This document shows positions 3,971 to 58,624 of a stretch of DNA of 64,000 nucleotides, one piece after another; position 1 is the stretch's first letter; each line of letters opens with the position of its first letter. The notes under the pieces are model-generated. The model saw only the letters and a list, made by a program, of their open reading frames with translations. It ran no database searches and was not told where the DNA came from. Source of the stretch: Polyangiaceae bacterium (GTDB taxonomy: Bacteria > Myxococcota_A > Polyangia > Polyangiales > Polyangiaceae); NCBI GenBank assembly GCA_016712345.1, contig JADJRH010000002.1:264466-328465 (forward strand), in the 5' to 3' direction. Position numbers and translations under genes: made by a program.

Positions 3971-5530
3971 ATGAGCAAATTTGCTCTCCACACCACACTG
4001 CCCCGTTACCTCCGTGAACAACAGGAGCGCATTGAGGGCATCGCCCGCGGTTACGGGCTCGATTTTTTCCCCGTTATTTTTGAAATATTAACGTACGACC
4101 AAATGAACGAAATCGCGGCGTACAGCGGTTTCCCCACGCGTTATCCCCATTGGCGCTTTGGCATGGAGTATGAACAACTCTCCAAGAGTTATGAATACGG
4201 CCTGTCAAAAATCTACGAAATGGTGATCAACAACAATCCTTCGTACGCTTACCTGCTTGAAGGAAACTCACTCACCGATCAAAAACTCGTTATGGCCCAC
4301 GTGTTTGGCCATGTTGACTTTTTCAAAAACAACTTCTGTTTCAGGCCCACAGACCTCGACCGCCAAGGCCCCGTTGTCGACCCTGTGCGCCGCCCCGGCG
4401 ACTACGATCCTGACAGAAAATGGATCGATAAAATGGCCAATCACGGTGCCCGCATCTCGCGCCATATTGAGCGACACGGCATCTCCAAAATAGAACAGTT
4501 TATCGATCAATGCCTCTCGCTTGAAAACCTGATTGACCCTTGGGCCCCATTTTCAGGCCGTGCCGCCCCCAAAATCGACGACGAAGATGAAGCTCCGGCG
4601 AGCGTGCCCAAACTCCAAGCCAAGGAGTATATGGACTCGTACATCAACCCTGAGAGCTACATTGAGGCGCAGAAAAAAAAGCAGCTTGAAAAACAAAAGG
4701 CTGAAAAGAAACACCCTGAAAAGCCCGAGCGCGACATCCTCAAGTTCGTTTTAGACAATGCCCCACTTGAACGTTGGGAGCGCGATGTTCTCGAAGTGCT
4801 CCGCGACGAGGCATATTACTTTTTGCCGCAGCGCCAAACCAAAATCATGAATGAAGGTTGGGCGGCTTATTGGCACTCTAAAATGATGACTGAAAAGGTA
4901 CTCGATGCTTCAGAAATCATCGATTACGCCGAAAACAACGCGGGTGTCATGGCCACCGCCCCCGGCAAACTCAACCCTTACAAACTCGGAGTAGAACTCT
5001 TCCGCTACATCGAAGAGCGCTGGGACAAAGGCCAGTTTGGTAAAGATTGGGAAGAGTGCAGTGACATGGACGCGCGCCGTCACTGGGATTTGCGCCTTGG
5101 AATGGGCCGCAAAAAGATCTTTGAAGTGCGTGCCCTCTACAATGACGTAACCTTCCTTGATGAATTTCTCACCCCAGAATTCATCATCGACATGAAAATG
5201 TACACATTCGGTTTTTCCAACCGCAATGACAGGTATGAAATCGAAAGTCGTGAGTTCAAAGAGGTCAAAGAAAAACTCCTTTTCCAACTCACAAACTTCG
5301 GTGATCCCGTCATCAGCGTCATTGATGCAAACTGGGGCAACCGGGGAGAACTGTTGCTTGAACATCGCTTCGCCGGGATGGAACTGCGGGCCGACTACGC
5401 TCGTGAAACGCTCGCCGCGCTCGTTCGATGTTGGAAGCGCCCCGTCCTTGTTTCCACACGGGTAGAAGGCAAACCTGTCCTCCTTCGATACGACGGCAAA
5501 GACCACTCTTCCATCCCCTTCAAGGTGTAG
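3971..5530 (+). CDS. spoVR: SpoVR family protein
   Basis: N-terminus TTLPRYL...[39 protein letters not shown], length about 519 aa. Sits 5 bp downstream of yeaH. Confidence 0.85.
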
Positions 5531-6792
5531 TGGTGAACCCCACTGCATCAAGCCTCCGGCTATACAGTCAGGTTGCCTTTCGCGTTCAAAAAGGTCGCCT
5601 TGTCGCAGCGGCGTTGATCACGTTTGGACTGAGCGCATGCGGGCCGAGTGAGCCTATCCAAACACCACCTCAACCCACCGCTTCAACTCCTCTCACCACT
5701 CCAACGCCTCTCAACTCCAACGCTCCACCGTCGCCGAGCGCCTCGGCCCAACAAGCCCCCACCGCGCAACCTACCACCTTACCACCGGACCCCATTCCAC
5801 CTCCAACCCCGCCGCCCCGCCTGGCCCGAGGTGTGGATACTCCGTCGGACAAAGCCCTTGTGGAAGGCGACACAGCGTTTGCCATATCCGACTTTACACT
5901 CGCAGAAAAGGCTTACAAAAAAGCCCAAACGTTGGCCCCCAAAGACCCGGCTCCCGTGGTTGGACTATGCCGGGCCCGGCTTGGAAAAGCTTCCATCCCC
6001 GAGGGGTTTGCCACCGCTGCCGGCGACAAAACAGTCACGGCGGCAATTGCCGATCTCAAAAAGGCCGTTGCGCTCGACAGTCAGTTTGCGCCCGCCCATA
6101 TTGAGTTGGCACGTACCCTTTTAATCTCCGGCGACGCCGCCGCGGCTCTCACCGCCGCAAAAAAAGGGGTAGAACTCTCTCCCAACGACCCAGAAGCCCA
6201 CTCGGCACTTGGCATTGCACACCTCGCCTCCGGTGACATCGAAAACGCCGTCACCTCGCTAAAACGCAGCGCAGAATTGGGCCCGGGTGACTTTGGCCGC
6301 CAACTCAACTACGCAACGGCCCTGTTGTCCGCCAAAAAAGTGACTGAAGCACAAGCTGTATTCCAAAAAGCCTCCCGCATTGACCCCAACGACGCGCGCG
6401 CCCACAACGGCATTGGAACAGCGCTCCTTATGTTGGGTGACCCGGTCAAGGCCACACCCCACCTTGAAAAAGCCACTCAACTCGACCCAGAAGGTGCAAG
6501 TTATTATCAAAACCTTGGGTACGCATGGTCCCTCCGCGGCGACGCTCCCAAAGCCATTCTTCTCTACCAAAAAGCTGTCGAAAAAAATCCAAAACTCGTC
6601 AGCGCCTGGATCAACCTCGGCAACACCTTTGCCACCCAGGGTAAGTTTACCGACGCTTGCAACGCGTACACCAAAGTGTACACACTTGACCCTGAAGACC
6701 CACGCCTCAAAGACGCCCTAATCGAAGTCGACGAAATCGCCAAAAAGCAGGGTCTCACAGGCGCCGGCTGCAAAGTCGGCAGCAAAAAGTAA
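5530..6792 (+). CDS. TPR-repeat lipoprotein with Pro-rich linker
   Basis: GTG start directly after spoVR stop. Signal plus lipobox LITFGLSAC. Pro/Thr-rich spacer followed by multiple 34-aa TPR-like units (AHIELARTLL..., AHSALGIAH..., AHNGIGTAL..., WINLGNTF...). Confidence 0.6.
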   Translation: MVNPTASSLRLYSQVAFRVQKGRLVAAALITFGLSACGPSEPIQTPPQPTASTPLTTPTPLNSNAPPSPSASAQQAPTAQPTTLPPDPIPPPTPPPRLARGVDTPSDKALVEGDTAFAISDFTLAEKAYKKAQTLAPKDPAPVVGLCRARLGKASIPEGFATAAGDKTVTAAIADLKKAVALDSQFAPAHIELARTLLISGDAAAALTAAKKGVELSPNDPEAHSALGIAHLASGDIENAVTSLKRSAELGPGDFGRQLNYATALLSAKKVTEAQAVFQKASRIDPNDARAHNGIGTALLMLGDPVKATPHLEKATQLDPEGASYYQNLGYAWSLRGDAPKAILLYQKAVEKNPKLVSAWINLGNTFATQGKFTDACNAYTKVYTLDPEDPRLKDALIEVDEIAKKQGLTGAGCKVGSKK

Positions 6793-6824
6793 GGTTATAC
6801 TCCAAGGGTCAATGCCCCCCACCG

Positions 6825-6844
6825 CCGCAGGTGGTCACCTGCGG
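6825..6844. terminator. GC-rich palindrome CCGCAGGTG-gt-CACCTGCGG between convergent genes (possible bidirectional terminator hairpin)
   Basis: Perfect 9-bp inverted arms. Located 33 nt after the TPR-gene stop and about 90 nt after the ATPase stop. No U-tract. Confidence 0.3.
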
Positions 6845-6932
6845 CTGGCCCCCCACGTGCCGTGCTCGGCCTTCGGCCTCCGCGCGTCAACGGGGGGCCC
6901 CCCCGCGAGCGGGAGTGCGAGCGGGTAGGGTG

Positions 6933-8744
6933 TCAGCGGGAGGTAGACACCGCCCGGCGAAGTTTTTTCGACGATTGGGGTTTGGTAGATTTGTCAGGCT
7001 TGGTAGGTTTATCGAATTTGTCAGATTGGGAAGGTTTCGCAGATTTGGTGAGCGTGTCAGGTTTGCTGGACTTATCGGGCTTGTCAGATTGGGGAGGTTT
7101 GTCAGGTTTGGTGGATTTGTCAGACTTGTCAGATTGGGAAGCTTGTCGCGACTTGAGAATTGCCGTTCGTTCGTGAATGGCTTTCGCCACGTCCCCCGCC
7201 ACTTCAAGCACTTCTTTGGGGGCTAGGGGCCGTTCACCGGTCACCATTTGCAGCGCGGCAACCAATGGTTCAAGCGGGGCCGCAAGCGGTGAAGTGCGGA
7301 GAATTGCGAGCGCCTCCGTCGGGTAACCCGCGGCGGCGATATCCACAAAGAGAGTCTGCCAACCTTCTTTTCGAACGCTCGGCAGGTGTCGGGCGATCCT
7401 TGCGCTCTCTTCCCGGAGCACCTCGCGCCCCTCTTCCCAGGTTCGCGCCCCCTCACTCAACTGCTTCAACCAATACTCTCGCACATGCGGATTTCCCTGC
7501 CGCTGAAACAGCGACCTGACGACCCACTTGTGGTCATCCCGCTTATCTTCGCTGAGTGCTCCAGCTTCGTTGGCGACGGTTTTCAAAACGCTGCCCAACT
7601 CGGCGGAGTCATAAAAGTGGACCATAAAATCCACCACAGCTCGAACGCGCGTTTCTTCCCCTCCCGAGCGCCGGAGCAAATGGTAGATATTGTACATTCG
7701 CTCCGAAAGTTCATACACTTTCTTCCGGCCGTCGCCCGATGCGGTAACCACACCCCGTTGAACCAATCTACCCAAGAGCGCACTCGTTTCACTGGCATTC
7801 ATCCGGGCTTGATCCGCCACTTCACGCGCTGTGGAAGGATGCCAAAGGTCGGCCAGTGTAACGTACACTTTGCGTTCTTTACCGGGCAAACTTTCAAGAT
7901 TGCTCTTGAAGTACGTGGTATGATCGTCCACCAACTTTACCAGGTGATCCATTAAATCGCGGAGAGACATTCCCGACGCGAACGATGCTAAAATGGCCAA
8001 TAACCGCGGATTTCCCCCAGTCAAAATATGCAGAGGTCGCATCCGCTCCACCGGCACGTTGGCTTGGGCAACTTGTTCCCACACCCGGTGGGCGCTGGGT
8101 AGATCGAGCGGATCTAACCGGTAGGTTCGAAACTGATCAAAAAACGCTTTTTCAGAATTTTCAATGGCATCAAAGCTGGCTGTGGCGGTGGCAACAAGCA
8201 ATATGCGGCGCTCAGTTTGAAGGGTTTTTCGCAACCGCCAAGCATCGGCATCTGAGATCTGTTCTCCAAGCAACATGTGGAGGTTTTCCACAACCACCAC
8301 AATGCGCTTGCCCCTCTGATGAGCGATTTCTAAGAGCGTTCCCAAAGCTCGATCATACAGACGTTGCTCGTCCAGTTCTTTCTTGAGGGTAGTATAAGTA
8401 TCCAGCAGGTGACGTTCGCCCAAACTGTCGGCCCAATAGCGCAACCCTTCCAACCAAAGTTCACCGGCGGTCAGCACTTCATACGCTTCTTCTGCGTACA
8501 CAAGGGGTAGCCACTCGTTTGAAAAGCGGGGGTTTGTTCTTACCTCGTGAGCCGCCCGTCTTACCAACGTTGTTTTGCCCATACCGCGCGCGCCAAAGAT
8601 CAAAAGATGTTGGCACGATGGGCCTGTATTTTCGGCAATGTGGTCAAGAACAAAGGTAAGGTCTTCTTCCCTCGCCACGAACGATCTGACAAGTTGGTCA
8701 GCGCTTAAAAACGGCGGGTTGTTTTTCATCAGCGGGGGGTTCAT
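6933..8744 (-). CDS. AAA+ ATPase (PF01637-like) with winged-helix domain and disordered KPDKS-repeat tail
   Basis: Walker A GARGMGKTT, Walker B VVVVENLH, wHTH-like KVYVTLADLW...LLGRLVQRGVV. C-terminal KSDKSTKPDKPPQSDKPDKSSKPD repeats are encoded by DNA tandem repeats. The ATG overlaps the stop of the upstream ATPase (ATGA overlap at 8741-8744). Confidence 0.6.
   Translation of the reverse strand: MNPPLMKNNPPFLSADQLVRSFVAREEDLTFVLDHIAENTGPSCQHLLIFGARGMGKTTLVRRAAHEVRTNPRFSNEWLPLVYAEEAYEVLTAGELWLEGLRYWADSLGERHLLDTYTTLKKELDEQRLYDRALGTLLEIAHQRGKRIVVVVENLHMLLGEQISDADAWRLRKTLQTERRILLVATATASFDAIENSEKAFFDQFRTYRLDPLDLPSAHRVWEQVAQANVPVERMRPLHILTGGNPRLLAILASFASGMSLRDLMDHLVKLVDDHTTYFKSNLESLPGKERKVYVTLADLWHPSTAREVADQARMNASETSALLGRLVQRGVVTASGDGRKKVYELSERMYNIYHLLRRSGGEETRVRAVVDFMVHFYDSAELGSVLKTVANEAGALSEDKRDDHKWVVRSLFQRQGNPHVREYWLKQLSEGARTWEEGREVLREESARIARHLPSVRKEGWQTLFVDIAAAGYPTEALAILRTSPLAAPLEPLVAALQMVTGERPLAPKEVLEVAGDVAKAIHERTAILKSRQASQSDKSDKSTKPDKPPQSDKPDKSSKPDTLTKSAKPSQSDKFDKPTKPDKSTKPQSSKKLRRAVSTSR
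6955..7160. repeat. imperfect approximately 18-24-bp tandem repeats inside the ATPase coding region (encode KPDKS/TKPDK low-complexity tail)
   Basis: ttggtagatttgtcaggc / ttggtaggtttatcgaatttgtcagattggga / ...ttgtcagattgggga... units are visible by eye. Confidence 0.6.
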
Positions 8745-9967
8745 TGTGGTGCGCCCGACTTCGCGAGAAAGTTGAATTTGGCCCGCCACCACCTGCGCAC
8801 CAGGTTAGAAACAAAAACATACCCATCCCCTTTTGACTCCAAATACCCGTCGTGCTCAAAAATCCCCAAGATTTCGCGCAGAAAATCTTCAGGTCTACCT
8901 TCCATCTCTCCACTCGACATAAAGTCGCGAGTGATCGCGAAGGCTCGCTCATTTGTCAGAGCACCGTTGATCGACGCATCCGTCAACAAGTCAATGGCGA
9001 GCGATTGTTTTTCAGGTCCGAGCACCAATTTGAGACGCTCTTCCAAGTGACTCAACTGCACATGACCCCGGCTGCTCAACATGCGTTCTTCAAAAACCCG
9101 TTGCACGTCACCGTCCGTCAATTCCCCTGATTTTCGGCGCCGAGCATCTTGGGAGGCAAAGTCGAAAAAGAGTTGAACATGGTGGGGCACCGCGCTCCCA
9201 AGCAGGGCAACCATTGTTTGCGCCGTCCCCCTTTGTAGAATCAGCTTTTGCGACTCGGCGATTCGAGTAAGAAATTCAACAGCGGTGTCTGTGTCCCAAG
9301 GGCTTAACTCAAACGGTGTAAACGTGTTCATTGTGGCTGACAGCGCGGCCTGTCGGAGCACCGGTTCAAGCCCAATGGAGCCTGCTGCAACAAATCGAAT
9401 TTGACCTTTTCGGCGGCTTGTTTCTTCGCGCAAAAAAGAAAGAAAAAGGTCGGCATCGCGGCGCCGTTCAGGAGTGATTTTATAATCGTCTCCCTTCAAC
9501 ATCCGGTTTACCAAAATGGGTAGTTCATCCAAAAAGATGATCACCGGCCCATCATGGGTTGAAAGGCTTTGAAGCAGCTGCACGCCCTTTGCTCGCCAAC
9601 CGGAGGCAACCGCGTCGCGCAGTTTGATGGACAGTTCAAACGCCTGCAGCGAGTCAACGTTTTCTAAAAATCCTTGAAAAACCGACTGCGCTCTTTTCCA
9701 CAGGGGTTGATGTTGACGCGTCGCGAGAGCCAGCTCGGCAATTGCATCGGCGGCGTTTTGTGACCCTTCCAAGTCGACAAACAAGCAGAGGTAGTTATCG
9801 GGAAGGCGACGCGCGAGTTCACGCATCAAGCTTGTTTTGCCGACGCGGCGCGGCGCCACCAACAACACGTGGTTCCCCGCATCAAGTTGCAGTCGCAATT
9901 CACGCAGCTCGTGGTCGCGGCCCCAAAAGTCGTCTCCGCTGACCCAATTTCCAACCTGACTTTTCAT
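8741..9967 (-). CDS. AAA+ ATPase, archaeal-type ATPase family (PF01637-like)
   Basis: FWGRDHELREL...LLVAPRRVGKTSLMRELARRL (Walker A) and IIFLDELP (Walker B). Start chosen at MKSQVG; a longer N-terminal extension is possible. Confidence 0.6.
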   Translation of the reverse strand: MKSQVGNWVSGDDFWGRDHELRELRLQLDAGNHVLLVAPRRVGKTSLMRELARRLPDNYLCLFVDLEGSQNAADAIAELALATRQHQPLWKRAQSVFQGFLENVDSLQAFELSIKLRDAVASGWRAKGVQLLQSLSTHDGPVIIFLDELPILVNRMLKGDDYKITPERRRDADLFLSFLREETSRRKGQIRFVAAGSIGLEPVLRQAALSATMNTFTPFELSPWDTDTAVEFLTRIAESQKLILQRGTAQTMVALLGSAVPHHVQLFFDFASQDARRRKSGELTDGDVQRVFEERMLSSRGHVQLSHLEERLKLVLGPEKQSLAIDLLTDASINGALTNERAFAITRDFMSSGEMEGRPEDFLREILGIFEHDGYLESKGDGYVFVSNLVRRWWRAKFNFLAKSGAPQ

Positions 9968-47813: not shown

Positions 47814-49040
47814 TCAACCGCACTCCACTCGAACCGTGGAGATAATGTGTTGGAGGGTTTTCTGTACCACTTCGGTTCGTTCGTGCCGAACAAGGAGGTA
47901 GCCGTCGCCCTCGTACCCCGTGCCTTTGGCTTGTCCAATGGAGGGAAGTTTTGACCCCACAATCAGGTGCCCCACTTCCCGCTCCACCTGTTCAATGCCG
48001 GTGATCGCTCGAATGTTACCTGTACCCTGTCCTCGCAAATAGGCTGCTCCGGCGGCAAATCGGCGCTTCGGAGGGTCCATCTCGCCGTACACCATTACTT
48101 TGGCCCACGCGTAACAGAGGTCTATTTCGTGGGCCAAACCTACCAACGTTGTAAACTGCGCTCCCGGCGGCCTGGCCCCCACTTCAGATATCGCAATGCT
48201 GCCGTCGTTTCGTCGAAACCACTCCATGTGGCTGAGCCCCGTGTCCATACCCAATACGTCCAGCGTTTTATACGCCGCATCCCGAATGTCGTCGTATTTC
48301 GGGTCGTCGATTTCGCGCGGTAAAACAACACTCCACTGAATCCAAGGGTTGCGCAGCACCTCCAGCGGGGTGGGGTGATAGTGGGTAAGCGAATGCCAAA
48401 TGTGCTTTCCACCGATGGTGATTGTTTCAAACGAGTGTTCGTTTCCAATCACCATCTCTTCCACAAGAACCGGTCTATCGGCGCTTGGAGCCGCTTTTGA
48501 AAGCTCGGCTTTCAACTGCGCTGCGTCGTTGACTCGAAACGTTGATTCTGCACCCGCGCCGGCCGGTGGCTTGACGATCAGCGGAAACCCGAGTTCTTTG
48601 GTAGCCTCCCACAGCTCGTATTCTGAGTAAACCGTTTTGTGTTTTGCGCAGGGTATACCGGCCTCACGAAGCAGCGACTTCATCCGTCCTTTGTCGCGAA
48701 AGTTTTTGGCCGTTTCCACACTCATCCCTTCTACCCCGAGGTGTTCTCGCGCTTCGGCGAGCGCTTCTTGAATTTGTTCAACAGCGCCGAAGAGCCTATG
48801 AATCCGGTCTTCTTTCACATAAGCCTGAAGCGCTTTTGCACCGCGCTCGATCTCCGCCGAACTCGCCACGTCTTTAATGGTAAGGTAGGCCGCAACGCCG
48901 CCGAGCAGGCGCCTCGGCAACTTGTCGAACGGTTCGAGCGACAAGATACCCAACTTCATGTCGGGCAGTCGAGAGAGCGCTTCAATGAATCGAATGGCAA
49001 CGTCGGTGAAATAGGGGGCCGTAAAGATCACGAAGGGCAT
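47814..49040 (-). CDS. ATP-grasp domain protein (carboxylate-amine ligase-like)
   Basis: LGFPLIVKPPAGAGAESTFRV, EEMVIGNEHSFETI and SEVGARPPG are typical ATP-grasp B/C subdomain motifs. Confidence 0.6.
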   Translation of the reverse strand: MPFVIFTAPYFTDVAIRFIEALSRLPDMKLGILSLEPFDKLPRRLLGGVAAYLTIKDVASSAEIERGAKALQAYVKEDRIHRLFGAVEQIQEALAEAREHLGVEGMSVETAKNFRDKGRMKSLLREAGIPCAKHKTVYSEYELWEATKELGFPLIVKPPAGAGAESTFRVNDAAQLKAELSKAAPSADRPVLVEEMVIGNEHSFETITIGGKHIWHSLTHYHPTPLEVLRNPWIQWSVVLPREIDDPKYDDIRDAAYKTLDVLGMDTGLSHMEWFRRNDGSIAISEVGARPPGAQFTTLVGLAHEIDLCYAWAKVMVYGEMDPPKRRFAAGAAYLRGQGTGNIRAITGIEQVEREVGHLIVGSKLPSIGQAKGTGYEGDGYLLVRHERTEVVQKTLQHIISTVRVECG

Positions 49041-49130
49041 ACGTTTTTCCCCTCCATATCACGGCCCGACGACGTGATCATCGTTCACGCGCATTGACAT
49101 TCGTTCGAAGGGCGGGCAGCAACGTAGACC

Positions 49131-52100
49131 ATGTCATTTGCGGCGATCGGGGTATTGCTCGGCGGGCGCTACCTCTTGGAGCGACGCCTTGCCGAAGGGG
49201 GCATGGGTGCCGTTTGGCGCGCGCGCCACATCAAGCTTGACGTGCCTGTTGTCGTGAAAGTGATGACGCCCGTGCTCGCGTCGTCGTCGGAGGCGCGCAC
49301 TCGGTTTGAACGCGAAGCAAAAGCCGCTGCGCGACTTACAAGTCCGCACGTTGTTGAAGTGCACGACTACGGTGTGGAGGGCGACACGCCCTACATCGTG
49401 ATGGAACACCTTGAAGGCCAGGACTTGGCGATGCGGCTCGCTGCGCGAGGCCATCTGCGGGTGGATGAAACGGCCGAGGTGATTGACCAGATAGCAAAAG
49501 CGCTCGATGTGGCGCACGCAGCCGGCGTCGTTCATCGCGACCTGAAACCGAGTAATGTATTTTTGGCGAAAACGGGGCGCGAAGAAGTTGTCAAGGTGCT
49601 TGACTTCGGTGTTGCAAAACTTCGCTCCGAGCCGGGTATAAGCACGCTGCCGGGTATGGTGATGGGCTCACCGAGCTACATGAGCCCCGAACAGACAAAG
49701 GGAGCAACGGCGCTGGACTATCGAAGCGATTTGTGGTCGCTCGGTGTTGTCGCTTTTGAATGTCTTACCGGGGCCCTGCCGTTTGATCGCGACGACGTGA
49801 CCGATCTGATTATAGCGATCAGTCAGGCACCCGTGCCGTCGGTTACGAGTTTTGCGCCGTGGCTCAATCCTGAACTCAACTCCTTTTTTGTGCGCGCGTT
49901 GTCGCGGCCCGTTGCCACGCGTTTTCAGTCCGCGCTCGAACTTGCGGAGGCATTTGTTGCCGCGGCGGGCCTGCCGGCGCGCGTTCGCTCCACATTTTCC
50001 AGTCAGGACTCCCATTCGGTAGGTGAATCGGCGGGGGCGCGACTGTCACTTTCTACCGGCTCTCTCCACAGCGAAAAAACGGTCGCACTCAGGGCCAAAC
50101 CTTCCGATGACATTTCAACTCTCACCGGTGCACCCAAGTCCAAGTCGAGGTCGGGAGCCGCCCTCGCAAACGTGGGTGAGGTCATCGCCGGCCGTTTTGA
50201 AGTGCTTTCCGCGGCGGGTGAAGGATCCATGGGAGTTGTCTTCCACACGCATGACAAGGTCACGGGGTCACAAGCGGCTCTCAAGTTATTTCGACCGAGC
50301 GTTGTGGACACATCTCGTTTTTTCCAAGAAGCCCACGCTCTGTCAGAATCGCACCATCCCGCGGTGGTGCGGTACGTTGCTCACGGAGTGACAAGCGAAG
50401 GTCAACCTTACCTTGCGATGGAATGGGTAGACGGAATCTCCCTTGCAATGCGACTCAAGCTCGGGCCGCTGGGTGTGACTGAAAGTTTGGTGCTTGCCAT
50501 TCGGCTCGCAGAAGGGTTGGGGGCGGTTCACAGAAATGGGATTGTCCACGGCGATCTGACACCTTCCAATATTCTTCTTTCGTCGGGTAGACTCGAAGAC
50601 GCCAAAATTATCGATTTTGGAATTTCGCATCGGGGCAAAAACAGCCGGTTGAATGTTTCACAACCGCTGCAAGTTACCGGAACACCGGGTTACCTCGCAC
50701 CCGAACAAGCGTTGGCCGGACAAACAACCGACTCGCGGGCCGATGTATTCTCGCTCGGTTGTGTACTCTTTGAGTGCCTTGCGGGGCGTTCACCGTTTGC
50801 GGCCGACAGCGCATTTGCCGCAATTGGAAAGCTCACCGCGGCGCCGGTTCCCCGCCTCTCGGATATCATGCCCACGGCGCCCGCCGGGCTTGACGCCCTC
50901 CTGGGTAGATTGCTCGCCCACAATCGAGAGTCACGACCTGAAAACGGTGCCGATGCTGCCGCGCTCATGGCCGCCGTTCACGATCTCGAAGCGCCGGTGT
51001 CCCGGGGTCGTGAAGGGATGACCCAAGGCGAGCGAAAACTGGTTCCGGTGGTGCTCGTTGTTCCGGCGGCCTCACTGCCAACTCTACCCACTGTGGGGCT
51101 TCAATTGGCAGCGGATGCCGCTCAGGACGATGCAACACTCAACGTTACGACCGACGTTGTCGCGCGGAACGAGCAGCTCACTCCCATTGCGAGGCGCTAC
51201 CAATGCCGGGTTGAAATTGTTCAAGGCGGCGCGTTTGCCCTGATTGGTGAAGGCGCGGGTCTACTGGTAGATCAAGCCACCCAGGCGGCATTGTGCGCCC
51301 TCGCTGTGCACGCGGCTTTCCCCGACTCCGCGGTTTCCGTGGCCACCGGACGAAAGGGAAAACGCGGTGGAGTGCTCGACCGGGCCGCGGCGTGTTTGGT
51401 GCGCGCTTTCGGCGGTGGTGAAGGCGCCCACAACGATTTGCCGCCGGTTCTCGACGACGCTTCTTTTGGTCTTCTCGACGGTAGGTTTGACATTGACCGA
51501 TCTACCCAACATTACCTTTTGAGAGGCCGGCTCCTCCGGGAAGAAGATCAAGGGCGTTTGCTGGGCAAGGTGGTTCCGTGCGCGGGGCGCGAACCCGAAC
51601 TTTCAATCCTTGATACTCTCTACCGTGAATGTTCTGAAGAGTCGACTGCCAAGGTGGTTATTATCAAAGGCCCCGCCGGTGCCGGCAAATCCCGCCTTCG
51701 ACGCGAATTTTTGCGCCGACTTAAAGACAGGGGTGAAGTTTTTATAGAATGGGTAGGTCGAGGCGACGTGATGAACGCCGGTTCCCCATTTGCCATCCTG
51801 TCCAACGCGGTGCACTCCATGTTGGACCTCGCGGGGGGTGAACCCGACGATGTTCGACGCGCTGCGCTGCGCGAAGTCGTGGCTCGTCGTGTACCCGCTG
51901 ATAGGGTAAACAGCGTGACAGCGTTCGTTGGGGAAATGGTGGGTATACCGTTTCCCGACGACAGCGACCCGCAGATTGAAGCGGCTCGTAAAGACGCTCT
52001 TTTGTTGGGCGATCAAAGGCGCCGCGCGTTTGAAGAACTCCTTGCTGCGGAGTGCTCCAAGTCGCCTCTGGTGCTCGTTCTTGAAGACTTGCACCTGTCC

Positions 52101-54080
52101 GATCTACCCACGGTGAAACTCATCGACAGCGCCCTTCGAACGCTCGAAAATCTACCCTTGTTCGTTGTCGCCACAGCGCGCGAGTCGGTGGGAGATTTGT
52201 TTCCCAAGTTATGGCACGAACGGGTGCCTCAAGAAATTCGCGTGGGGCCTCTCTCCGCAAAAGCGAGCGAAAAAATTGTTCGTTCCGTGTTGGGGGCCGC
52301 CGCGGACAAAGACCTTGTGTCAAAGGTTGTTTCACGCGCCGGTGGACATCCGCTCCACTTGGAAGAGATCGTGCGGGCCGTTGCCGAAAGACCCGGCAGC
52401 GAGTTGCCCGACACAGTGCTTGCGGTTGTGGAGGCTCGTCTCGCGGCGCTCGATCCGGCGGCGCGTTTGGTGCTTCGCGCGGCGAGCGTTTTTGGTAGAA
52501 CGTTTTGGCAAGGCGCCGTTACAGAACTCACCTCACTCCGATCTTCCACGGTTGCCGATTGGCTTCGCGACTTGGATGAACACGAATGGATCAAGCGATC
52601 TACCCTATCGCGTTTTGTGGGTGAAACCGAGTTTGTCATTCAACAGGATCTTGTACAGGAAGCTGCGTACGCCATGCTCCATGAGAGCGATCGCGAGTTG
52701 GGTCACAGACTCGCCGCCAACTTTCTTGTGCGCTCGGGCGAGCGTGATCCAACCGTGTTGTCGCGGCATTTTGAGTTGGGAGGTGACTCTGCCCGCGCCG
52801 CGCTCTGGCTTCTGCGGGCAGCGGAACAAGCTCTCGACGGCAACGACTTTGCGGCGGCTGTAACCCTTTCTGCCAAGGCTGCGGCTCTCAGCAACGATCC
52901 CATTCACGGAGGCCGGGCCGCGGCCATCTCGGCAGAGGCGAACTTGCATCGCGGCGAGTTGACAGCCGCGCGAGAACAGGCGTTTTTTGCGATGAAACAC
53001 CTCGCTCCCCCCGAGCCGGAGTATTTTCGTGCCTGCTCTTCGGCGGTGGCTTCAAGTGGAAAACTCGGCGACCTTGAAAGTGTACAGAAAGTCGCGCGGT
53101 CGCTTCTTGAGTTGGACGCGGCAAGCTGTCCACCCATTTCGCTCGCATCGGTGGGTGGAAACGGTATTGTCCAATGTTTTATTCTCGGCGATACTGCCCT
53201 CGGAACAACCTTTCTAGAGTGGTTTGATAAGATCGCCCACCAAGCCGCTCAAACAGAACCTCTCGTTGCCGCTCAACTGGCGCGGGCACGTGGGGCGAAG
53301 GCAGCGTATTCAGGCGATCTATACGGTTCAATAGAGCAGCTGCGAAACGCTGTCATCGCTTCGGACGCCGCCGGGGACATGCGCTCGGCGTGCGCGTTGC
53401 GAAAAACCCTTGGATGGTATCTCGGCGAACTTGGGGCTCTTGAAGAGGCCGAAAAAGCGCTGCGCGAGGCCATTTCCGCAGCTGATAAAATGGGTCTGAC
53501 AAGCCTCGCGCCCCATGCCAAACACGACCTGGGGTCACCGCTGCTTCGCCTGGGTAAACTCGATGAAGTGCGCATCTCTCAAGAAGAAGCCCTGATCGCC
53601 TTTGATTTGCAAGGAGACAAGCGCCTTCAGTCGAGTGCCCACGCGCTTTTGAGCGCCGTTCAGCTTTTGGCAGGCGATCTTGACGCCGCCGAACGTGAGG
53701 CGAATCTGGCCCTTTCATTGGCTCCTTCGGACATGATTCGCTTTACAGCGCTGACGCGCCTCGCCGACGCTCAACGCGCGCGTGGTCACCATGAAGAAGC
53801 TATTGCCACAGCAGATATTGCCCTCAAGGTTGCCGATGAAACGGGCAACATCGAAGAGTGTTTGGTGCTTTGTTACCTCGTTCGCGCTGAAAGTCTCATT
53901 CAGCTTGGACAACGTAACGAGGCAGAATCTACCCTGCGTCGCGCCCGAGTAGAAATCGAGCGCCGCGCCGCGGGCATCAGTGATCTCACCCTTCGCGGTT
54001 CGTTCGTTGCCCGCATCCCTGAAAATGCCCGCGTCTTGGAACTTTGTAACACGCAGTTCCAAGATCAGGGGCATTCGTGA
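49131..54080 (+). CDS. tandem Ser/Thr kinase - (pseudo)kinase - AAA(STAND) - TPR signalling protein
   Basis: Kinase 1: GGMGAVWRA, VVKV, HRDLKPSN, DFGVAK, SPSYMSPE. Kinase-like 2: GEGSMGVVF, ALKLF, HGDLTPSN (HRD->HGD, K->T), DFGIS, TPGYLAPE. A possible degenerate cyclase-like linker is followed by P-loop IIKGPAGAGKSRL and a long TPR/helical C-terminus. Confidence 0.85.
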   Translation: MSFAAIGVLLGGRYLLERRLAEGGMGAVWRARHIKLDVPVVVKVMTPVLASSSEARTRFEREAKAAARLTSPHVVEVHDYGVEGDTPYIVMEHLEGQDLAMRLAARGHLRVDETAEVIDQIAKALDVAHAAGVVHRDLKPSNVFLAKTGREEVVKVLDFGVAKLRSEPGISTLPGMVMGSPSYMSPEQTKGATALDYRSDLWSLGVVAFECLTGALPFDRDDVTDLIIAISQAPVPSVTSFAPWLNPELNSFFVRALSRPVATRFQSALELAEAFVAAAGLPARVRSTFSSQDSHSVGESAGARLSLSTGSLHSEKTVALRAKPSDDISTLTGAPKSKSRSGAALANVGEVIAGRFEVLSAAGEGSMGVVFHTHDKVTGSQAALKLFRPSVVDTSRFFQEAHALSESHHPAVVRYVAHGVTSEGQPYLAMEWVDGISLAMRLKLGPLGVTESLVLAIRLAEGLGAVHRNGIVHGDLTPSNILLSSGRLEDAKIIDFGISHRGKNSRLNVSQPLQVTGTPGYLAPEQALAGQTTDSRADVFSLGCVLFECLAGRSPFAADSAFAAIGKLTAAPVPRLSDIMPTAPAGLDALLGRLLAHNRESRPENGADAAALMAAVHDLEAPVSRGREGMTQGERKLVPVVLVVPAASLPTLPTVGLQLAADAAQDDATLNVTTDVVARNEQLTPIARRYQCRVEIVQGGAFALIGEGAGLLVDQATQAALCALAVHAAFPDSAVSVATGRKGKRGGVLDRAAACLVRAFGGGEGAHNDLPPVLDDASFGLLDGRFDIDRSTQHYLLRGRLLREEDQGRLLGKVVPCAGREPELSILDTLYRECSEESTAKVVIIKGPAGAGKSRLRREFLRRLKDRGEVFIEWVGRGDVMNAGSPFAILSNAVHSMLDLAGGEPDDVRRAALREVVARRVPADRVNSVTAFVGEMVGIPFPDDSDPQIEAARKDALLLGDQRRRAFEELLAAECSKSPLVLVLEDLHLSDLPTVKLIDSALRTLENLPLFVVATARESVGDLFPKLWHERVPQEIRVGPLSAKASEKIVRSVLGAAADKDLVSKVVSRAGGHPLHLEEIVRAVAERPGSELPDTVLAVVEARLAALDPAARLVLRAASVFGRTFWQGAVTELTSLRSSTVADWLRDLDEHEWIKRSTLSRFVGETEFVIQQDLVQEAAYAMLHESDRELGHRLAANFLVRSGERDPTVLSRHFELGGDSARAALWLLRAAEQALDGNDFAAAVTLSAKAAALSNDPIHGGRAAAISAEANLHRGELTAAREQAFFAMKHLAPPEPEYFRACSSAVASSGKLGDLESVQKVARSLLELDAASCPPISLASVGGNGIVQCFILGDTALGTTFLEWFDKIAHQAAQTEPLVAAQLARARGAKAAYSGDLYGSIEQLRNAVIASDAAGDMRSACALRKTLGWYLGELGALEEAEKALREAISAADKMGLTSLAPHAKHDLGSPLLRLGKLDEVRISQEEALIAFDLQGDKRLQSSAHALLSAVQLLAGDLDAAEREANLALSLAPSDMIRFTALTRLADAQRARGHHEEAIATADIALKVADETGNIEECLVLCYLVRAESLIQLGQRNEAESTLRRARVEIERRAAGISDLTLRGSFVARIPENARVLELCNTQFQDQGHS

Positions 54081-55168
54081 TATTCGATGAACGCATGACG
54101 GAAGTGGACCTCTTCCTTGCCGAACGACGCAGGCGATCCGATGAACGGCTTGCGGCTGTAAAAAACGCTCTACTCCGTGAAATTCCCGAGGCAGAAAGGG
54201 TTGAATTGCTCGGGCATCACACCTGCATTTACGCCGTCGGCTCCGGTGGGCGCGGAGAACTTTCTCGTTACAGCGATCTTGACCTTTTCCTCGTCAAGCA
54301 GGGTTCTCCCCGCAGGGTAGATGAAATTCGCCTGCAAAGTGCGGTGATTCGTGCTCTTCGTTCTGAAGGTTTTGAAGACCCGTCCAACGACGCGAGCTTT
54401 CTCAAGTTGCATGCCGCCGAACACTTAATTGAGCGGTTGGGGGAGCCCAGTGACGACACCGAAAACACGTTTACCGTGCGCATGCTCCTGCTTCTCGAAA
54501 GTCGACCGCTGCTCGGTGACCTTGCGCACGAAAGGCTCGCAAAAAAAGCTCTCGACGCATATTGGAAAAATGTGGAGGCGCACCGGGAAGATTATCTACC
54601 CATTGTTTTCTTCAACGACATCATTCGCTACTGGCGCATGATGCTCCTGAATTACGAATCGAAAACGGCCGACAAACAGCGCAGAGTTGAACGGATGTTT
54701 GCCGCCGGCCCCTCGCCTGAACGCACCCGTGCCGAGTTGGACCTGGAGGCCGACAAAAACCTACGCAGTTATAAACTGCGATTTAGCCGGTGTCTTCTTT
54801 GTTATTCGAGCGTTGCATATTTAATGGCTGAAGCGTACCGCACCCAAACCGAACAGAAGCGCGCTCACGTGACGCGTGAAGTGGTAGATCACATGGTCAT
54901 GTTGCCACCCATGGATCGATTACGCGAGGCAATTGACAAGGCGAAAACCGCGCCGGGCGTTACAGAAATCGGGCGGGAGTTAACGGCTCTCTACGCTCAA
55001 TTTCTCCGCGATACAGATCGCTCCAAAAACGAACTTCACGCAATCTTTGTGAGTCGGCGCGACAGAAAGCCGCTTTTTAACGCCGCCAAAGAGTTTGGTG
55101 AAAAGATGTATGATTTTATTATGGCCCTCGGGCACAATAATCCAATGTTTCGCTATCTGGTGGTATGA
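54077..55168 (+). CDS. GlnD/DUF294-type nucleotidyltransferase with substrate-binding helical domain
   Basis: IYAVGSGGRGELSRYSDLDLFLV matches the GlnD-like pol-beta NTase motif (G[GS]xGRGEL...SD[IL]DL). About 240 aa of helical domain follows. The start overlaps the kinase stop by 4 nt. Confidence 0.55.
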   Translation: MIFDERMTEVDLFLAERRRRSDERLAAVKNALLREIPEAERVELLGHHTCIYAVGSGGRGELSRYSDLDLFLVKQGSPRRVDEIRLQSAVIRALRSEGFEDPSNDASFLKLHAAEHLIERLGEPSDDTENTFTVRMLLLLESRPLLGDLAHERLAKKALDAYWKNVEAHREDYLPIVFFNDIIRYWRMMLLNYESKTADKQRRVERMFAAGPSPERTRAELDLEADKNLRSYKLRFSRCLLCYSSVAYLMAEAYRTQTEQKRAHVTREVVDHMVMLPPMDRLREAIDKAKTAPGVTEIGRELTALYAQFLRDTDRSKNELHAIFVSRRDRKPLFNAAKEFGEKMYDFIMALGHNNPMFRYLVV

Positions 55169-55220
55169 TTGATAATGTCGTTCCGGTGTGTTTGATCAGC
55201 TTGGCAGCAAGGAGACAATC

Positions 55221-55907
55221 ATGAACAAGCGCTTGTGGATGCTTGGTTTGGCGCTCATTCTACCCGCCTGTGACGGGGGTGGTGACGGCTCGGGTGGAAG
55301 CGCCGGTTCGGCGGGCTCCGCCGGTTCGGCGGGGGGTGAAACCACGGGAGCGGCGGGGACCGCCGGGTCTGGAACGGGAGGCAACTCTACTACCGGCTCC
55401 GGGGGCAGCACAGGCAGCACCGCGCCGGTGGGCGATTGTTCCGTGGCCATGCCCTGCACAACGGCGGGAGAGTCGTGCGTTTTTCCGGCCAACTCGTGCG
55501 GTTCAGATGCAACCGGCACGTGCAAAGAAATCACCTGTGACGGTACCGAAGAAAACCATGGTCCGATTTGCCTCTGCGATGGTGAGGTATTTGAGTTTAA
55601 CGCCGAGTGTCTGGTGTGGGATCAGAGTAAACCCATTGCCCCGGCCGACAATTGTGCCAACGGAACCTTCTCGTGCGGTACAGAAACATGCACCTACAAT
55701 ACGCAGTTTTGTATTGTGACCTACGCGGGGCCCGAGGGGTCAACTCCGTCGTATGAGTGCCGCAACGTTGTAGATGCTCAAACCACTTGCCTTTACGGCA
55801 TTTCAGATTGCGGATGTATCAACCTGACGGACCTTGGCTGCCCTGACACAAGCTGCTGTTATATGGATGGTTTCTACCAAGAAACCGTCACCATTTATCT
55901 ACCTTAG
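55221..55907 (+). CDS. Gly/Ser-linker, Cys-rich lipoprotein
   Basis: Lipobox LILPACDG. Linker GSAGSAGSAGSAGG. About 24 Cys in the C-terminal 150 aa. Confidence 0.45.
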   Translation: MNKRLWMLGLALILPACDGGGDGSGGSAGSAGSAGSAGGETTGAAGTAGSGTGGNSTTGSGGSTGSTAPVGDCSVAMPCTTAGESCVFPANSCGSDATGTCKEITCDGTEENHGPICLCDGEVFEFNAECLVWDQSKPIAPADNCANGTFSCGTETCTYNTQFCIVTYAGPEGSTPSYECRNVVDAQTTCLYGISDCGCINLTDLGCPDTSCCYMDGFYQETVTIYLP

Positions 55908-57061
55908 CGATAATTGCCGTCCGAAGGCGACTTGACTACCAATGCCTGTTTTGACAGGCCCAAGTCTTCAAGGCCGCCGCTCAACAGGCCCGCGCTGCCC
56001 GGTGGTCCGGGGAGCCATAAGGCGAACCCCCGCGCTCCAGCGTTTACTTCCCCACCCAAAGTCTGCTGATCCCACGTTCCCGTGTTCAGGTCCATTTGCC
56101 AAAGATCCCCCAACATGCTTGCACCCGTGGGTGAGTCGGACCCAAACCCCATGACAAGCGAAGTCATGTCCGCTCTAAAAGCTACCCATGGCAAACGTCG
56201 TCCCGACGGTTTAAGACCCGGTTGAATTTTGACTTCTGTCCACGTTTCTGTTGCAGGGTCAAAACTCCAAACGTCGGCTAGAAAATTGGGCGAACCGTTG
56301 AGTGGACCAAGCCCACCTAAAAGCCAGAGCGGGCCACCCTCCACCGGGTAGCGAAGGACACCGTCATAACGCGCCTGTGGCCCTTTTGCCGTCAGTTCGG
56401 TGAAGCTTCCATCGGTGGGTAGATAGCGCCACATCACATCTGAAAACCCGGTTTGCGCCGAGGCGCCGCCAAAAATGTACCCTTCGTCGCGATCGGCTAA
56501 AAAGACGGCATGACACCCAACGGGGTGTTCAGCGGCGCCGGGCGATCCAAGGGCCGTCACTTCGTTGGTGGTCAGGTTTACCTTTTCAACATTGGTGGTT
56601 TCGTTGAAATCTGTTCCTCGACCACCGATGATAATCAACTCATTTCGGTTGGTATCTACCATGGCACAGCCGCAGTATCGATTTGAAATCGGAGCAGTGA
56701 CAGCGGTTGCCTTTACCCCGTCCGCGGTTTGCTCAACGCGAACCAGATTGGCTGTTACAGGGCCCGCCGTTCCACCGACGCCCCCCACCAAATAAGCCAC
56801 TTTCCCCGATTCTTGCGCAACAATCCCACCCCATACGGGGGGTAGATTTTCAACACTGACCAGGTCAAACGACCACGGCCCCGGCTCTTCGGTCTGGGTG
56901 GTGGTACCACCCCCGGAACCACCCGTGCCGCCCGTTGTTGATGACGTTTCACCCCCGGCACCTCCCGTTGAGGTTTCCGTTGAAGAACCGTCGCAGGCCT
57001 GAACCAGCAGGCCCAGGGCTAGGGTTAGGCCCAAGCAAACATTCGATCGCATTCGATTCAT
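55904..57061 (-). CDS. Kelch/beta-propeller repeat lipoprotein
   Basis: Lipobox LLVQACDG. Gly/Thr linker. Repeated Kelch-like blades (YLVGG..., IIIGG..., YIFGG..., WLLGG..., the last followed by a GG pair). Confidence 0.5.
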   Translation of the reverse strand: MNRMRSNVCLGLTLALGLLVQACDGSSTETSTGGAGGETSSTTGGTGGSGGGTTTQTEEPGPWSFDLVSVENLPPVWGGIVAQESGKVAYLVGGVGGTAGPVTANLVRVEQTADGVKATAVTAPISNRYCGCAMVDTNRNELIIIGGRGTDFNETTNVEKVNLTTNEVTALGSPGAAEHPVGCHAVFLADRDEGYIFGGASAQTGFSDVMWRYLPTDGSFTELTAKGPQARYDGVLRYPVEGGPLWLLGGLGPLNGSPNFLADVWSFDPATETWTEVKIQPGLKPSGRRLPWVAFRADMTSLVMGFGSDSPTGASMLGDLWQMDLNTGTWDQQTLGGEVNAGARGFALWLPGPPGSAGLLSGGLEDLGLSKQALVVKSPSDGNYR

Positions 57062-57277: not shown

Positions 57278-58624
57278 ATGCGCTTGTCCACCGTTCTCAC
57301 TCAGTTTCTCGTGTGCATCCCCATCATCGGTGCCGCGGGGTGTTCCTTAGCGGAGCCGATCTTAATTCCAATGTGTCAAGAAACGCCGGAGGCGCGGAGC
57401 GAGCAGAAACAACCTTCCAAGCCGCTGCCCGCGCACCCTGACTACGAGCAGCTTCGCGCGCTCAGAAACTATTATTCTGTTCAATCGGTTGAAGAGTACG
57501 CTCACCACTTTTCGGTTTGGTTCAGCTGTGTTGAGTCCAGTACGGCGCACTACACGGTTTCGCCCTCGGGTGAAGTTCGCAAAGTCGGCGGCGCGTGGGG
57601 AGGTCTCGCCACGACAGATAGAAAGGTTGACAGTGTTCCGCCGGAGCAGGCTCAAAACGCCGCTCTTGTTCGAACCGAGCACGATCGAGCGTATCTCCAC
57701 GAGTCAAAACCGATTGTTGTGTACATGGGTTCTTACCGCCGGGTTTGGGTAAATGAAGTGGTGCCGTGGCACGGTCCTGGAAGTCCATACAAACGGATGA
57801 TGAACCACATGGAAGTAGCATTTCGAGCCAATGCCGATCTTACCTCGTTCGACGGGTATGAAACGTTCTCCGGCGGCACAACAAAGCTGTGTTGGGAAGA
57901 CCTCTCTGTCCGAGACTGTTCCAACCCCCATTGGGTAGATTTCACTCCGTCCAAGTCACCCACTTCACTTCTTGTCGCGCTTGCCTCCAATAATGCGGCC
58001 GCGCCGGTTTTGTCTGAAGAACGGCAGAAGTTCAACGAAGTGGTGTTGGCCGCCGCTCGCAAAAAAGTGGCAGGTGAGCCGGGCACCCCGCTCGCCGATA
58101 TTCTAACGCATCAAGAAGCGACCTTACTCCCCACCGGCTACAATCCCGAATTTGTCATTGGGTTTAGAATGCACGCCCACCCTAAAGAAGGTGCAAACCA
58201 AAAAAACGTGGAGTCACAGTTTTCAAAAACCCTTCTTTTGAGCGACATTTTTAAGGGTTCAATCAAAACAACATTGGAAGGTCAAGTGGCCGGTCAACCC
58301 GTCAGCGCCGACGTGACCATCTCGGTTGACCCGAAACCGCCCCAACCTCAAGGCGAGTTTGAAACATCGCTCCAGTTTGTGTACACAATTCGTGCCGTGG
58401 GCAGTTCGCGCTCGGCCGAGTTAAAGGTAACCGCCAAAGTGATTGTCGACGGTGATCGTGTGGCTCTCCTGTGGAGAAATCTACCCAAAGAGGTTGAGCA
58501 GGCTCCACATTTGCCGCCGCTGACTCAAACGTTTGCCGGTACCGGAATGTATAAAGAAGTGGAAAGCCACTTTTTTCTGACAAGCGACACCATGCCCAAA
58601 CCGTGGTATCCGCCGAGCAGGTAG
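57278..58624 (+). CDS. hypothetical lipoprotein
   Basis: Lipobox IIGAAGCS. No recognisable domain. Confidence 0.35.
   Translation: MRLSTVLTQFLVCIPIIGAAGCSLAEPILIPMCQETPEARSEQKQPSKPLPAHPDYEQLRALRNYYSVQSVEEYAHHFSVWFSCVESSTAHYTVSPSGEVRKVGGAWGGLATTDRKVDSVPPEQAQNAALVRTEHDRAYLHESKPIVVYMGSYRRVWVNEVVPWHGPGSPYKRMMNHMEVAFRANADLTSFDGYETFSGGTTKLCWEDLSVRDCSNPHWVDFTPSKSPTSLLVALASNNAAAPVLSEERQKFNEVVLAAARKKVAGEPGTPLADILTHQEATLLPTGYNPEFVIGFRMHAHPKEGANQKNVESQFSKTLLLSDIFKGSIKTTLEGQVAGQPVSADVTISVDPKPPQPQGEFETSLQFVYTIRAVGSSRSAELKVTAKVIVDGDRVALLWRNLPKEVEQAPHLPPLTQTFAGTGMYKEVESHFFLTSDTMPKPWYPPSR

Follow-up and report, generated by a model that had tools for sequence, protein, structure and literature searches.

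PknK of Mycobacterium tuberculosis, a STAND protein of the MalT clade, carries an N-terminal Ser/Thr kinase effector, a nucleotide-binding oligomerization domain (NOD) of the AAA_16 type, and a TPR-like helical sensor. STANDs of the PknK/MalT type undergo inducer-triggered, nucleotide-dependent multimerization (PMC4381067). A protein with this layout is encoded in a 64-kb stretch of DNA (64,000 nt of contig JADJRH010000002.1; hereafter the window) from a metagenome-assembled genome (MAG) of a Polyangiaceae bacterium. Its gene, for a 1,649-aa tandem-kinase STAND protein (49131..54080, + strand), lies just ahead of one for a 357-aa stand-alone nucleotidyltransferase (NTase) of the GlnE/DrrA fold (54095..55168, + strand). 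A first-pass annotation of the DNA had taken the pair for a nucleotidylylation/phosphorylation regulatory or immune-type module. Our comparison with related loci points elsewhere. We consider it likely that these are two independently functioning genes that are neighbors in one shallow Polyangiaceae lineage, because the NTase is maintained in loci that have no kinase and the kinase family in loci that have no NTase.

The kinase has several described relatives in layout. Unlike PknK, it has two tandem kinase domains and a degenerate cyclase-like domain before the NOD, and the likeness to PknK is one of architecture. The order kinase, cyclase-homology domain, AAA_16, TPR is that of TIGR03903 ("TOMM system kinase/cyclase fusion protein"), and mycobacterial cyclase–ATPase–TPR proteins of the Rv0386 type have a comparable order. 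The window kinase nevertheless falls outside TIGR03903 (2.5e-103, 346.9 bits against an NCBIfam cut-off of 705.75), the Asp pair that binds metal seems to be missing from its cyclase-like domain, and Pfam revealed no thiazole/oxazole-modified microcin genes among the window neighbors examined. Plant tandem kinase proteins are kinase–pseudokinase immune receptors. They share with the window protein two kinase domains, the second with a noncanonical catalytic loop. The resemblance is one of analogy: in the second window domain the catalytic Asp and Asn and the DFG motif are all in place, and the protein comes from a bacterial signaling family in which it has hundreds of relatives.

The NTase likewise resembles known enzymes in part. 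As a single 357-aa module it lacks the HD and ACT domains of GlnD, the second NTase module of GlnE, and the GEF and P4M domains of Legionella DrrA/SidM, and no glnA, glnB, or other nitrogen-regulation gene was found by Pfam among the window neighbors examined. Its nearest Pfam family is DUF294 (PF03445), yet it scores below threshold there and has no CBS or cNMP domain. PDC-M70, a candidate system from BREX, DISARM, and restriction–modification (R-M) loci, has a two-gene layout of an NTase (A) and then a small, 240-aa partner (B). The A model matches the window NTase, but the match is partial and distant compared with a bona fide pair, which scores 3e-149 (A) and 2.6e-106 (B). No PDC-M70B-like gene lies beside the window NTase, the ORF downstream of it having no PADLOC match, and the locus does not belong to PDC-M70. 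In MntA–HepT (MNT–HEPN), as described in one report (PMC7641770), a pol-beta NTase AMPylates and neutralizes its paired nuclease. That system is a possible model for pairs that relatives of the window NTase form with an exonuclease or a 2H phosphoesterase. The window protein itself is weakly similar to the minimal NTases (E ~0.02; high Foldseek probability but a template-modeling [TM] score of 0.2), and it has no nuclease partner in the window.

The Pairing Is Confined to a Shallow Clade

The kinase–NTase pairing is neither ancient nor obligatory. A one-genome-per-species scan gave 447 relatives of the NTase, and 80 loci from other species, retrieved with flanks of up to 10 kb, span Myxococcota, Acidobacteriota, Actinomycetota, Bacteroidota, Planctomycetota, and Proteobacteria. 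A kinase-STAND gene adjoins the NTase in none of the 80. Some unrelated Pkinase open reading frame (ORF) lies 2–9 kb away in nine of them, the base rate in kinase-rich genomes. The tight partner is instead a DEDDh exonuclease or a 2H phosphoesterase in 72 of the 80. Seen from the kinase, adjacency is equally absent. The C-terminal 1,019 aa have 760 homologs, of which those listed are mostly ~1,300-aa Pkinase–AAA_16–TPR proteins and ~10 are tandem-kinase versions (48–56% identical). Five loci of tandem-kinase paralogs were inspected, and the NTase is adjacent in none; next to the kinase stand an HSP70-like gene and two others in two loci, and a convergent kinase, a 113-aa ORF, and RecQ in one each. 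On these counts the proposed module fails the synteny check that the first-pass annotation had set: adjacency is restricted to the window and the lineages represented by L083, L086–88, and L093/94.

Within that neighborhood the comparison is finer. Beyond the window, the junction exists only in these three close lineages, whose NTases are ~77% identical to that of the window, so that among the six closest lineages the kinase is present beside the NTase in four and absent in two. L083 has the gene order of the window: histidine kinase, abhydrolase, ATP-grasp, kinase, NTase. L086–88 and L093/94 retain the kinase C terminus and the NTase across a 13-nt gap, with downstream genes that differ in each. 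The two kinase-less lineages show that the kinase is dispensable. L001 (NTase 75% identical) reads abhydrolase, ATP-grasp, a 74-nt gap, NTase, and the flanks of L092 (78% identical) are the same except that the gap measures 140 nt. In both, the ATP-grasp gene (47814..49040, − strand, in the window), a synteny anchor outside any module, abuts the NTase directly. MAGs STL-MYX13 and ABC1.6 (source of kinase-less L001) carry a tandem kinase and the NTase on different contigs. The upstream ATP-grasp and abhydrolase genes are retained as well as the kinase–NTase junction, and because these unrelated genes are kept equally, block synteny by descent explains why the junction has been retained.

The NTase was already without its usual partner in this part of the tree. 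It falls in a Polyangiaceae clade of NTases that are 63–100% identical to it (window, L001, L092, L083, L086–88, L093/94, L084/85, L089/90, L091, and L002). By sequence the window NTase is of the exonuclease-linked branch, and the adjoining exonuclease has been lost across this clade; L003, at 55% identity, still has it. L084, L089, L091, and L002 have neither exonuclease nor kinase beside the NTase, and in more distant clade members the gene upstream of it is either an Fpg/Nei glycosylase or a 122-aa ORF. The NTase-adjacent kinases form one orthologous clade, and in a bootstrapped neighbor-joining tree of the NTases the kinase-less L092 joins the kinase-bearing L083/L086/L093 at 84%, with 4% for monophyly of the kinase-bearing loci. 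Given that grouping and the single clade of adjacent kinases, the simplest history would be that the kinase arrived once, ahead of an NTase that was already an orphan, and was then cleanly lost at least once.

Three smaller features of these loci are recorded here. The window forms a long branch in both trees. In L083, a metagenome contig, the kinase (4685–9717) is split into ORFs of 443 and 1,238 aa by a frameshift just before the HGD loop of domain 2; the split may reflect a pseudogene or a fault in the assembly. The small ORF upstream of the NTase (122–123 aa, no Pfam match, same strand and directly adjacent) is found at L089 4471–4839, L090 20–388, and L091 865–1236, and belongs to the branch of 63–69% NTase identity that has neither exonuclease nor kinase.

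The Kinase–NTase Junction

The first-pass annotation had the two genes translationally coupled through a 4-nt overlap, with a 363-aa NTase beginning at 54077. Both ORFs exist as it gave them (49131..54080 and 54077..55168), and the overlap, GTGA, in which GTG 54077 runs into the kinase stop, is present in the DNA. That GTG, however, is in frame only in this genome. The predicted conserved start is ATG 54095: alignment of the DNA with that of the closest relative starts at precisely this codon, the deposited protein and its homologs are 357 aa long, with the homologs aligning from that Met, and each of the three other loci that have the kinase shows a 13-nt gap and an upstream NTG that is out of frame. 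With this start, the junction occupies 54078..54094 (+ strand), comprising the TGA stop of the kinase (54078–54080) and a 14-nt spacer. To judge from these alignments, then, the conserved arrangement is a gap of 13–14 nt before ATG 54095 and not a 4-nt overlap. A promoter and terminator scan of 48800–56100, uninformative in that its counts equal those of shuffled sequence, found no terminator-like site at the junction. Co-transcription of the two genes is compatible with the 13- to 14-nt spacing and the lack of a terminator, and is probable.

The Kinase Belongs to a Known Myxobacterial Architecture

The product of the kinase gene is identical to entry P0121 of our homolog search and to the deposited "protein kinase" of the Polyangiaceae MAG. 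The ORF call, two Pkinase matches, an AAA_16 match of 70.9 bits, and weak TPR matches bear out the earlier description of a STAND-type kinase with a P-loop NTPase and a TPR region, and all motifs quoted for this protein and for the NTase were recovered; in the kinase these are HRDLKPSN, DFG, HGDLTPSN, a second DFG, and GPAGAGKS. The Pkinase model (PF00069) gives 269.6 bits over two stretches, residues 16–228 and ~354–622. The first corresponds to a canonical RD Ser/Thr kinase domain (aa ~12–280; 49164..49970, + strand, as are all domains of this gene) with HRDLKPSN at aa 135–142 and DFG at aa 158. The AAA_16 STAND NTPase domain (aa 817–1013; 51579..52169) is matched at 2.4e-19 against a cut-off of 32.6 bits and has its Walker A motif, GPAGAGKS, at aa 847–854. 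Behind it, a C-terminal helical/TPR sensor region (aa ~1100–1640; 52428..54050) gives weak matches to TPR_8, TPR_2, and TPR_12; homologs of the protein have TPR_12 and TPR_MalT there. By Pfam score and motifs the protein is a eukaryotic-like Ser/Thr kinase, and by its AAA_16-type NOD with Walker A, followed by a helical/TPR sensor, it is a STAND NTPase of the MalT/PknK clade.

Kinase domain 2 (aa ~354–622; 50190..50996) was rightly described as kinase-like with an altered catalytic loop, HGDLTPSN (aa 473–480), but the label pseudokinase does not follow. That label calls for loss of an essential residue such as the catalytic Asp, the DFG Asp, or the VAIK Lys, and the domain retains the catalytic Asp and Asn, DFG (aa 495), and APE. 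Its changes are R to G, which makes it non-RD, and K to T. Among the tandem homologs compared, the loop reads HGDLKPSN in seven and HRDVKPxN in two, so the K-to-T change is peculiar to the window. Judged by its motifs, domain 2 is a non-RD kinase domain whose status as a pseudokinase is not established.

Between the kinase domains and the NTPase lies a domain that the earlier annotation had missed, a degenerate class III cyclase-homology-like domain (aa ~637–801; 51039..51533). Pfam is silent over it, with no match to Guanylate_cyc (PF00211) in the protein. An AlphaFold2 model of residues 631–830 has a pLDDT of 82, and all 50 matches listed by Foldseek in the PDB are class III adenylyl or guanylyl cyclase catalytic domains, with E values down to 2.6e-5 and TM scores of 0.4–0.5. 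In an alignment made by eye, the positions of the metal-binding Asp residues read VVLVVPAAS and GEG, the first Asp being absent and the second replaced by Glu; the domain is probably noncatalytic. The same domain (51039–51533) is also conserved across the ~1,300-aa single-kinase relatives.

The NCBIfam model NF033483 (Stk1/PknB PASTA) returned 459, above its cut-off of 450, but that figure sums two stretches; the better one covers kinase positions 2–279 of 563, Pfam found no PASTA domain in the protein, and the assignment was rejected. Nor is horizontal transfer or a mobile cassette indicated, because the GC content at third codon positions, 0.588, equals that of the neighboring genes (0.56–0.62); the higher overall GC of the gene stems from codon positions 1 and 2. 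The kinase is thus a further member of the known and abundant myxobacterial Pkinase–(cyclase-like)–AAA_16–TPR architecture. It adds one protein, in which the N-terminal kinase domain is duplicated and a degenerate cyclase-like domain is present, to a large myxobacterial repertoire of STAND kinases.

The closest tandem-kinase paralogs, ~53% identical, lie at L081 10953–15366 and L082 11091–15586. Downstream of each, beginning at a 4-nt overlap or after a 44-nt gap, come a conserved 828-aa gene of the HSP70/MreB-like type and then two genes of 137–139 and 503–506 aa. This arrangement could be a separate kinase–chaperone operon.

The NTase Has the Fold of Protein AMPylases

The NTase (363 aa if GTG 54077 is used) is identical to the deposited "hypothetical protein IPK82_21515" of the Polyangiaceae MAG. 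It consists of a pol-beta NTase core (54209..54556, + strand), whose GS...DxD motif, GSGGRGELSRYSDLDLFLV (nt 54239–54295), was correctly quoted before, and an all-helical C-terminal domain (54602..55132, + strand) of the KNTase_C/HEPN-like substrate-binding type, recognized from secondary structure and from fold matches over 241–248 residues. GlnE, DrrA, and the aminoglycoside NTases have helical domains of this class (PMC3710099). All family-invariant residues are kept: G55, S56, R59, E61, S66, D67, D69, D126, D127, and N130. In a high-confidence structural model, the core and helical domain superpose on GlnE and DrrA, which head the Foldseek ranking; ANT(3'')(9), ANT(4'), AadA, and kanamycin NTase come directly after. 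The motif and the fold similarity therefore assign the protein, at the level of a modeled fold, as a GlnD/GlnE-like pol-beta NTase with a helical domain.

This much of the earlier description holds; its finer labels do not. Against Pfam, NTP_transf_2 reaches 19.0 bits and DUF294 (PF03445) 17.2 bits against a threshold of 21, both below the gathering score, and there is no Pfam match to PF10335, CBS, or cNMP domains in the protein. It is thus not a canonical DUF294 protein with a DUF294_C domain, although some of its homologs do pass the PF03445 threshold. GlnD was rejected as well: the NCBIfam GlnD models give 13.8–22.9 bits against cut-offs of 519–1010 and align over the N-terminal motif region only, and 357 aa leave no room for HD and ACT. 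The protein also lacks what would place it among the CD-NTases (SMODS, CBASS cyclases), by profile and by fold. The remark that such NTases are normally fused to CBS/cNMP sensors is true of canonical DUF294, but the family of the window protein is nearly all stand-alone, at 310–360 aa.

In an exhaustive profile search of 1.84 billion representative sequences, this family comprises 413 representative clusters at E ≤ 1e-30 and 2,103 at E ≤ 1e-3. Its profile has no significant match among PDB sequences, those of aminoglycoside nucleotidyltransferases (ANTs) included, and the literature searched contained no experimental characterization of it. The sole PADLOC model to match the window protein is PDC-M70A (2.8e-31, residues 43–201). 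No phage homologs were found. The window NTase is an orphan member of a family that is seemingly uncharacterized but recognizable.

The NTase Family Has Other Partners

Members of this family are usually partnered by an enzyme that cleaves phosphodiesters, which may be a DEDDh exonuclease, a 2H phosphoesterase, or, in distant relatives, PDC-M70B. A DEDDh exonuclease of ~200–250 aa lies directly upstream of the NTase in 41 of the 80 loci, with weak Pfam matches to Rv2179c-like and RNase_T and a match at 1e-35 to the PADLOC "Effector Exonuclease" model. A 2H phosphoesterase (2_5_RNA_ligase2, 1e-7) lies directly downstream in 31. Examples of these cassettes, among the NTase loci L003–L080, are L004 3182–4918 and L037 9869–11490. 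Their outer genes are not conserved, and a Pfam scan of 54 flanks of 2H-linked loci revealed no further conserved neighbor. That the link between exonuclease and NTase is functional is confirmed by a fusion of the two, P0365 (548 aa; exonuclease profile 3.9e-81, residues 8–201). Neither kind of cassette occurs in the window, where profiles of the exonuclease and the 2H partner matched nothing in a six-frame translation of the full 64 kb.

The associations of the family are those of a conflict system. P0363 (494 aa) is a fusion of TIR_2 and NTase (TIR 7e-21, residues 9–103). In seven 2H loci the phosphoesterase is fused to an Eco57I-type N6-adenine methyltransferase (L030, L049, L056, L070, L079, and L080; ~413–767 aa) or to a type IIG restriction-methylase, the latter in full in L057 (10982–14734, 1,250 aa; PADLOC PDLC03603, 2.8e-144). 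Distant plasmid homologs (24–28% identical) are bona fide PDC-M70A. On Sinorhizobium mexicanum plasmid pEmeITTGR7a, a PDC-M70A+B pair (L099 5022–6709) lies beside an AbiEii toxin gene and an ISL3 transposase, and on the 4.5-kb ColE1-type E. coli plasmid pISHS7_5 a PDC-M70A-like NTase (L098 711–1706) is, apart from Rop, all that is annotated as cargo. In the literature, PDC-M70 is a "guilt-by-embedding" candidate from a supplement, itself untested. PDC-M70B has no Pfam match and no significant PDB sequence match, and an initial guess of a TIM barrel for it was dropped.

What the partner does can be framed in several ways. The exonuclease or 2H enzyme could erase a nucleoside monophosphate (NMP) adduct; one account of RNase Z (PMC12663964) offers a precedent for a nuclease acting as a deAMPylase. 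By analogy with MntA–HepT, the partner could be a toxin that is neutralized by NMPylation, or it could be a partner in RNA-end processing. The pattern could mark a new writer/eraser pair, toxin–antitoxin pair, or defense system. A family that is rare (~400 clusters at E ≤ 1e-30), has a protein-AMPylase fold, and is almost always tied to a phosphodiester-cleaving partner is the more promising lead, and it lies outside the window.

Independent Neighbors or a Joint Switch

The activity of each protein can be sketched from its closest relatives. For the kinase, as for STANDs of the PknK/MalT type, binding of a ligand or partner at the TPR sensor would release autoinhibition, the NOD would exchange ADP for ATP and multimerize, and the clustered kinase domains would trans-activate and phosphorylate their targets. 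The degenerate cyclase-like domain is probably a dimerization or regulatory module. The NTase would move NMP from a nucleoside triphosphate onto a protein hydroxyl or, less likely, onto an RNA 3' end or a small molecule; protein is the best guess as acceptor because DrrA and GlnE, whose folds come closest, AMPylate proteins. In the history that we favor, the exonuclease partner would have been lost first and a kinase paralog would later have landed 13–14 nt upstream, with neither gene needing the other.

Several points weigh against independence of the two genes. Four sampled lineages preserve the junction, on one strand and with 13–14 nt and no terminator, though the downstream genes differ in each, and spacing that tight generally means co-transcription and at times a shared function. 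Cross-talk between the enzymes is chemically plausible, since each modifies hydroxyl groups of proteins. The NTase family is linked to conflict systems by the TIR fusion P0363, by the R-M methyltransferase fusions of its 2H partner, and by its relatedness to PDC-M70A, and STAND NTPases are often immune sensors. Finally, the NTase tree was inferred by neighbor joining only and has the window as a long, low-GC branch, so the order of loss versus gain is not secure.

The same tight junction, its survival of downstream rearrangement, a fold shared with the protein-AMPylating DrrA and GlnE, and the retention of all family-invariant catalytic residues would suit a clade-specific operon. In such an operon the NTase would nucleotidylylate the STAND kinase, for instance on the activation segment of the non-RD domain 2, or be switched by phosphorylation itself, giving a two-layer hydroxyl-modification switch. 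We regard this as rather unlikely. L001 and L092 lack the kinase while their NTase and flanks are intact, the abhydrolase and ATP-grasp genes are as well conserved as the junction and block synteny by descent suffices, adjacency is found in 0 of 80 other NTase loci and 0 of 5 tandem-kinase loci, and a frameshift interrupts the L083 kinase where the catalytic loop of domain 2 lies. It is unlikely, too, that an NTase of a conflict-associated family, its exonuclease lost, was captured behind a tandem-kinase STAND sensor so that NMPylation and phosphorylation meet on the same protein. Were such a captured-NTase switch real, it would be the first case in bacteria of a STAND kinase that controls, or is controlled by, a protein nucleotidylyltransferase of the GlnE/DrrA type.

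Resemblance to defense systems could also be read as a sign of an immune-type module, in which the STAND-TPR kinase would sense an invader and the NTase would serve as effector or signal generator after loss of the exonuclease. The N-terminal kinase domains match the PADLOC models PD-T4-6, mad6, and MkoA, but this is generic kinase-domain similarity; the C-terminal 1,029 aa match nothing in PADLOC, and these models were rejected as the identity of the kinase. The match of the NTase to PDC-M70A leads to a candidate that is untested itself. TIR fusion, 2H partners fused to type II and type IIG R-M methyltransferases, and the small E. coli plasmid with its single NTase cargo count in favor, but phage homologs were not found, and the locus is a stable chromosomal block of housekeeping-type genes whose tested neighbors have no PADLOC matches and show no mobile-element signs. 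Moreover, the exonuclease was gone before the kinase came (L084, L089, L091, and L002 are without both), and loss of the kinase was not accompanied by loss of the NTase. An immune module is accordingly quite improbable here. More improbable yet is that the NTase modifies a small molecule, as an O-nucleotidyltransferase of an aminoglycoside-type antibiotic or a metabolite to which the kinase is irrelevant. Myxobacteria live among antibiotic producers, and the ANTs that follow DrrA and GlnE in the Foldseek ranking have the same NTase-plus-helical layout; however, the protein has no significant sequence match to any ANT, and resistance enzymes are not expected to need exonuclease or 2H partners or fusions to exonuclease and TIR. 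Had the module held, it would have been a new signaling or immune module joining phosphorylation and nucleotidylylation. The comparative evidence opposes this and leaves a locus of modest interest.

Neighboring Genes

Downstream of the NTase, a 239-aa ORF (55221..55907, + strand) encodes a lipoprotein with the lipobox MNKRLWMLGLALILPAC (LILPAC), a long Gly/Ser/Thr linker, and a Cys-rich C-terminal domain. It was considered as a partner of the NTase and rejected: it has its own AAGGAG Shine–Dalgarno sequence, neither Pfam nor PADLOC gives a match, it shows no relation to the exonuclease or 2H profiles, and among related loci only that of the close relative L001 conserves it. The HSP70-like partner seen beside the kinase paralogs is absent, the window containing neither an HSP70-like gene nor a second kinase, and Rfam and tRNA scans of the window gave no match. 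An ORF of 448 aa at 57278–58624 is without a match in Pfam, NCBIfam, or PADLOC. The GC content of the window is 0.57 despite its Polyangiaceae source, and the orthologous loci L083, L086, and L093 are visibly more GC-rich at the junction.

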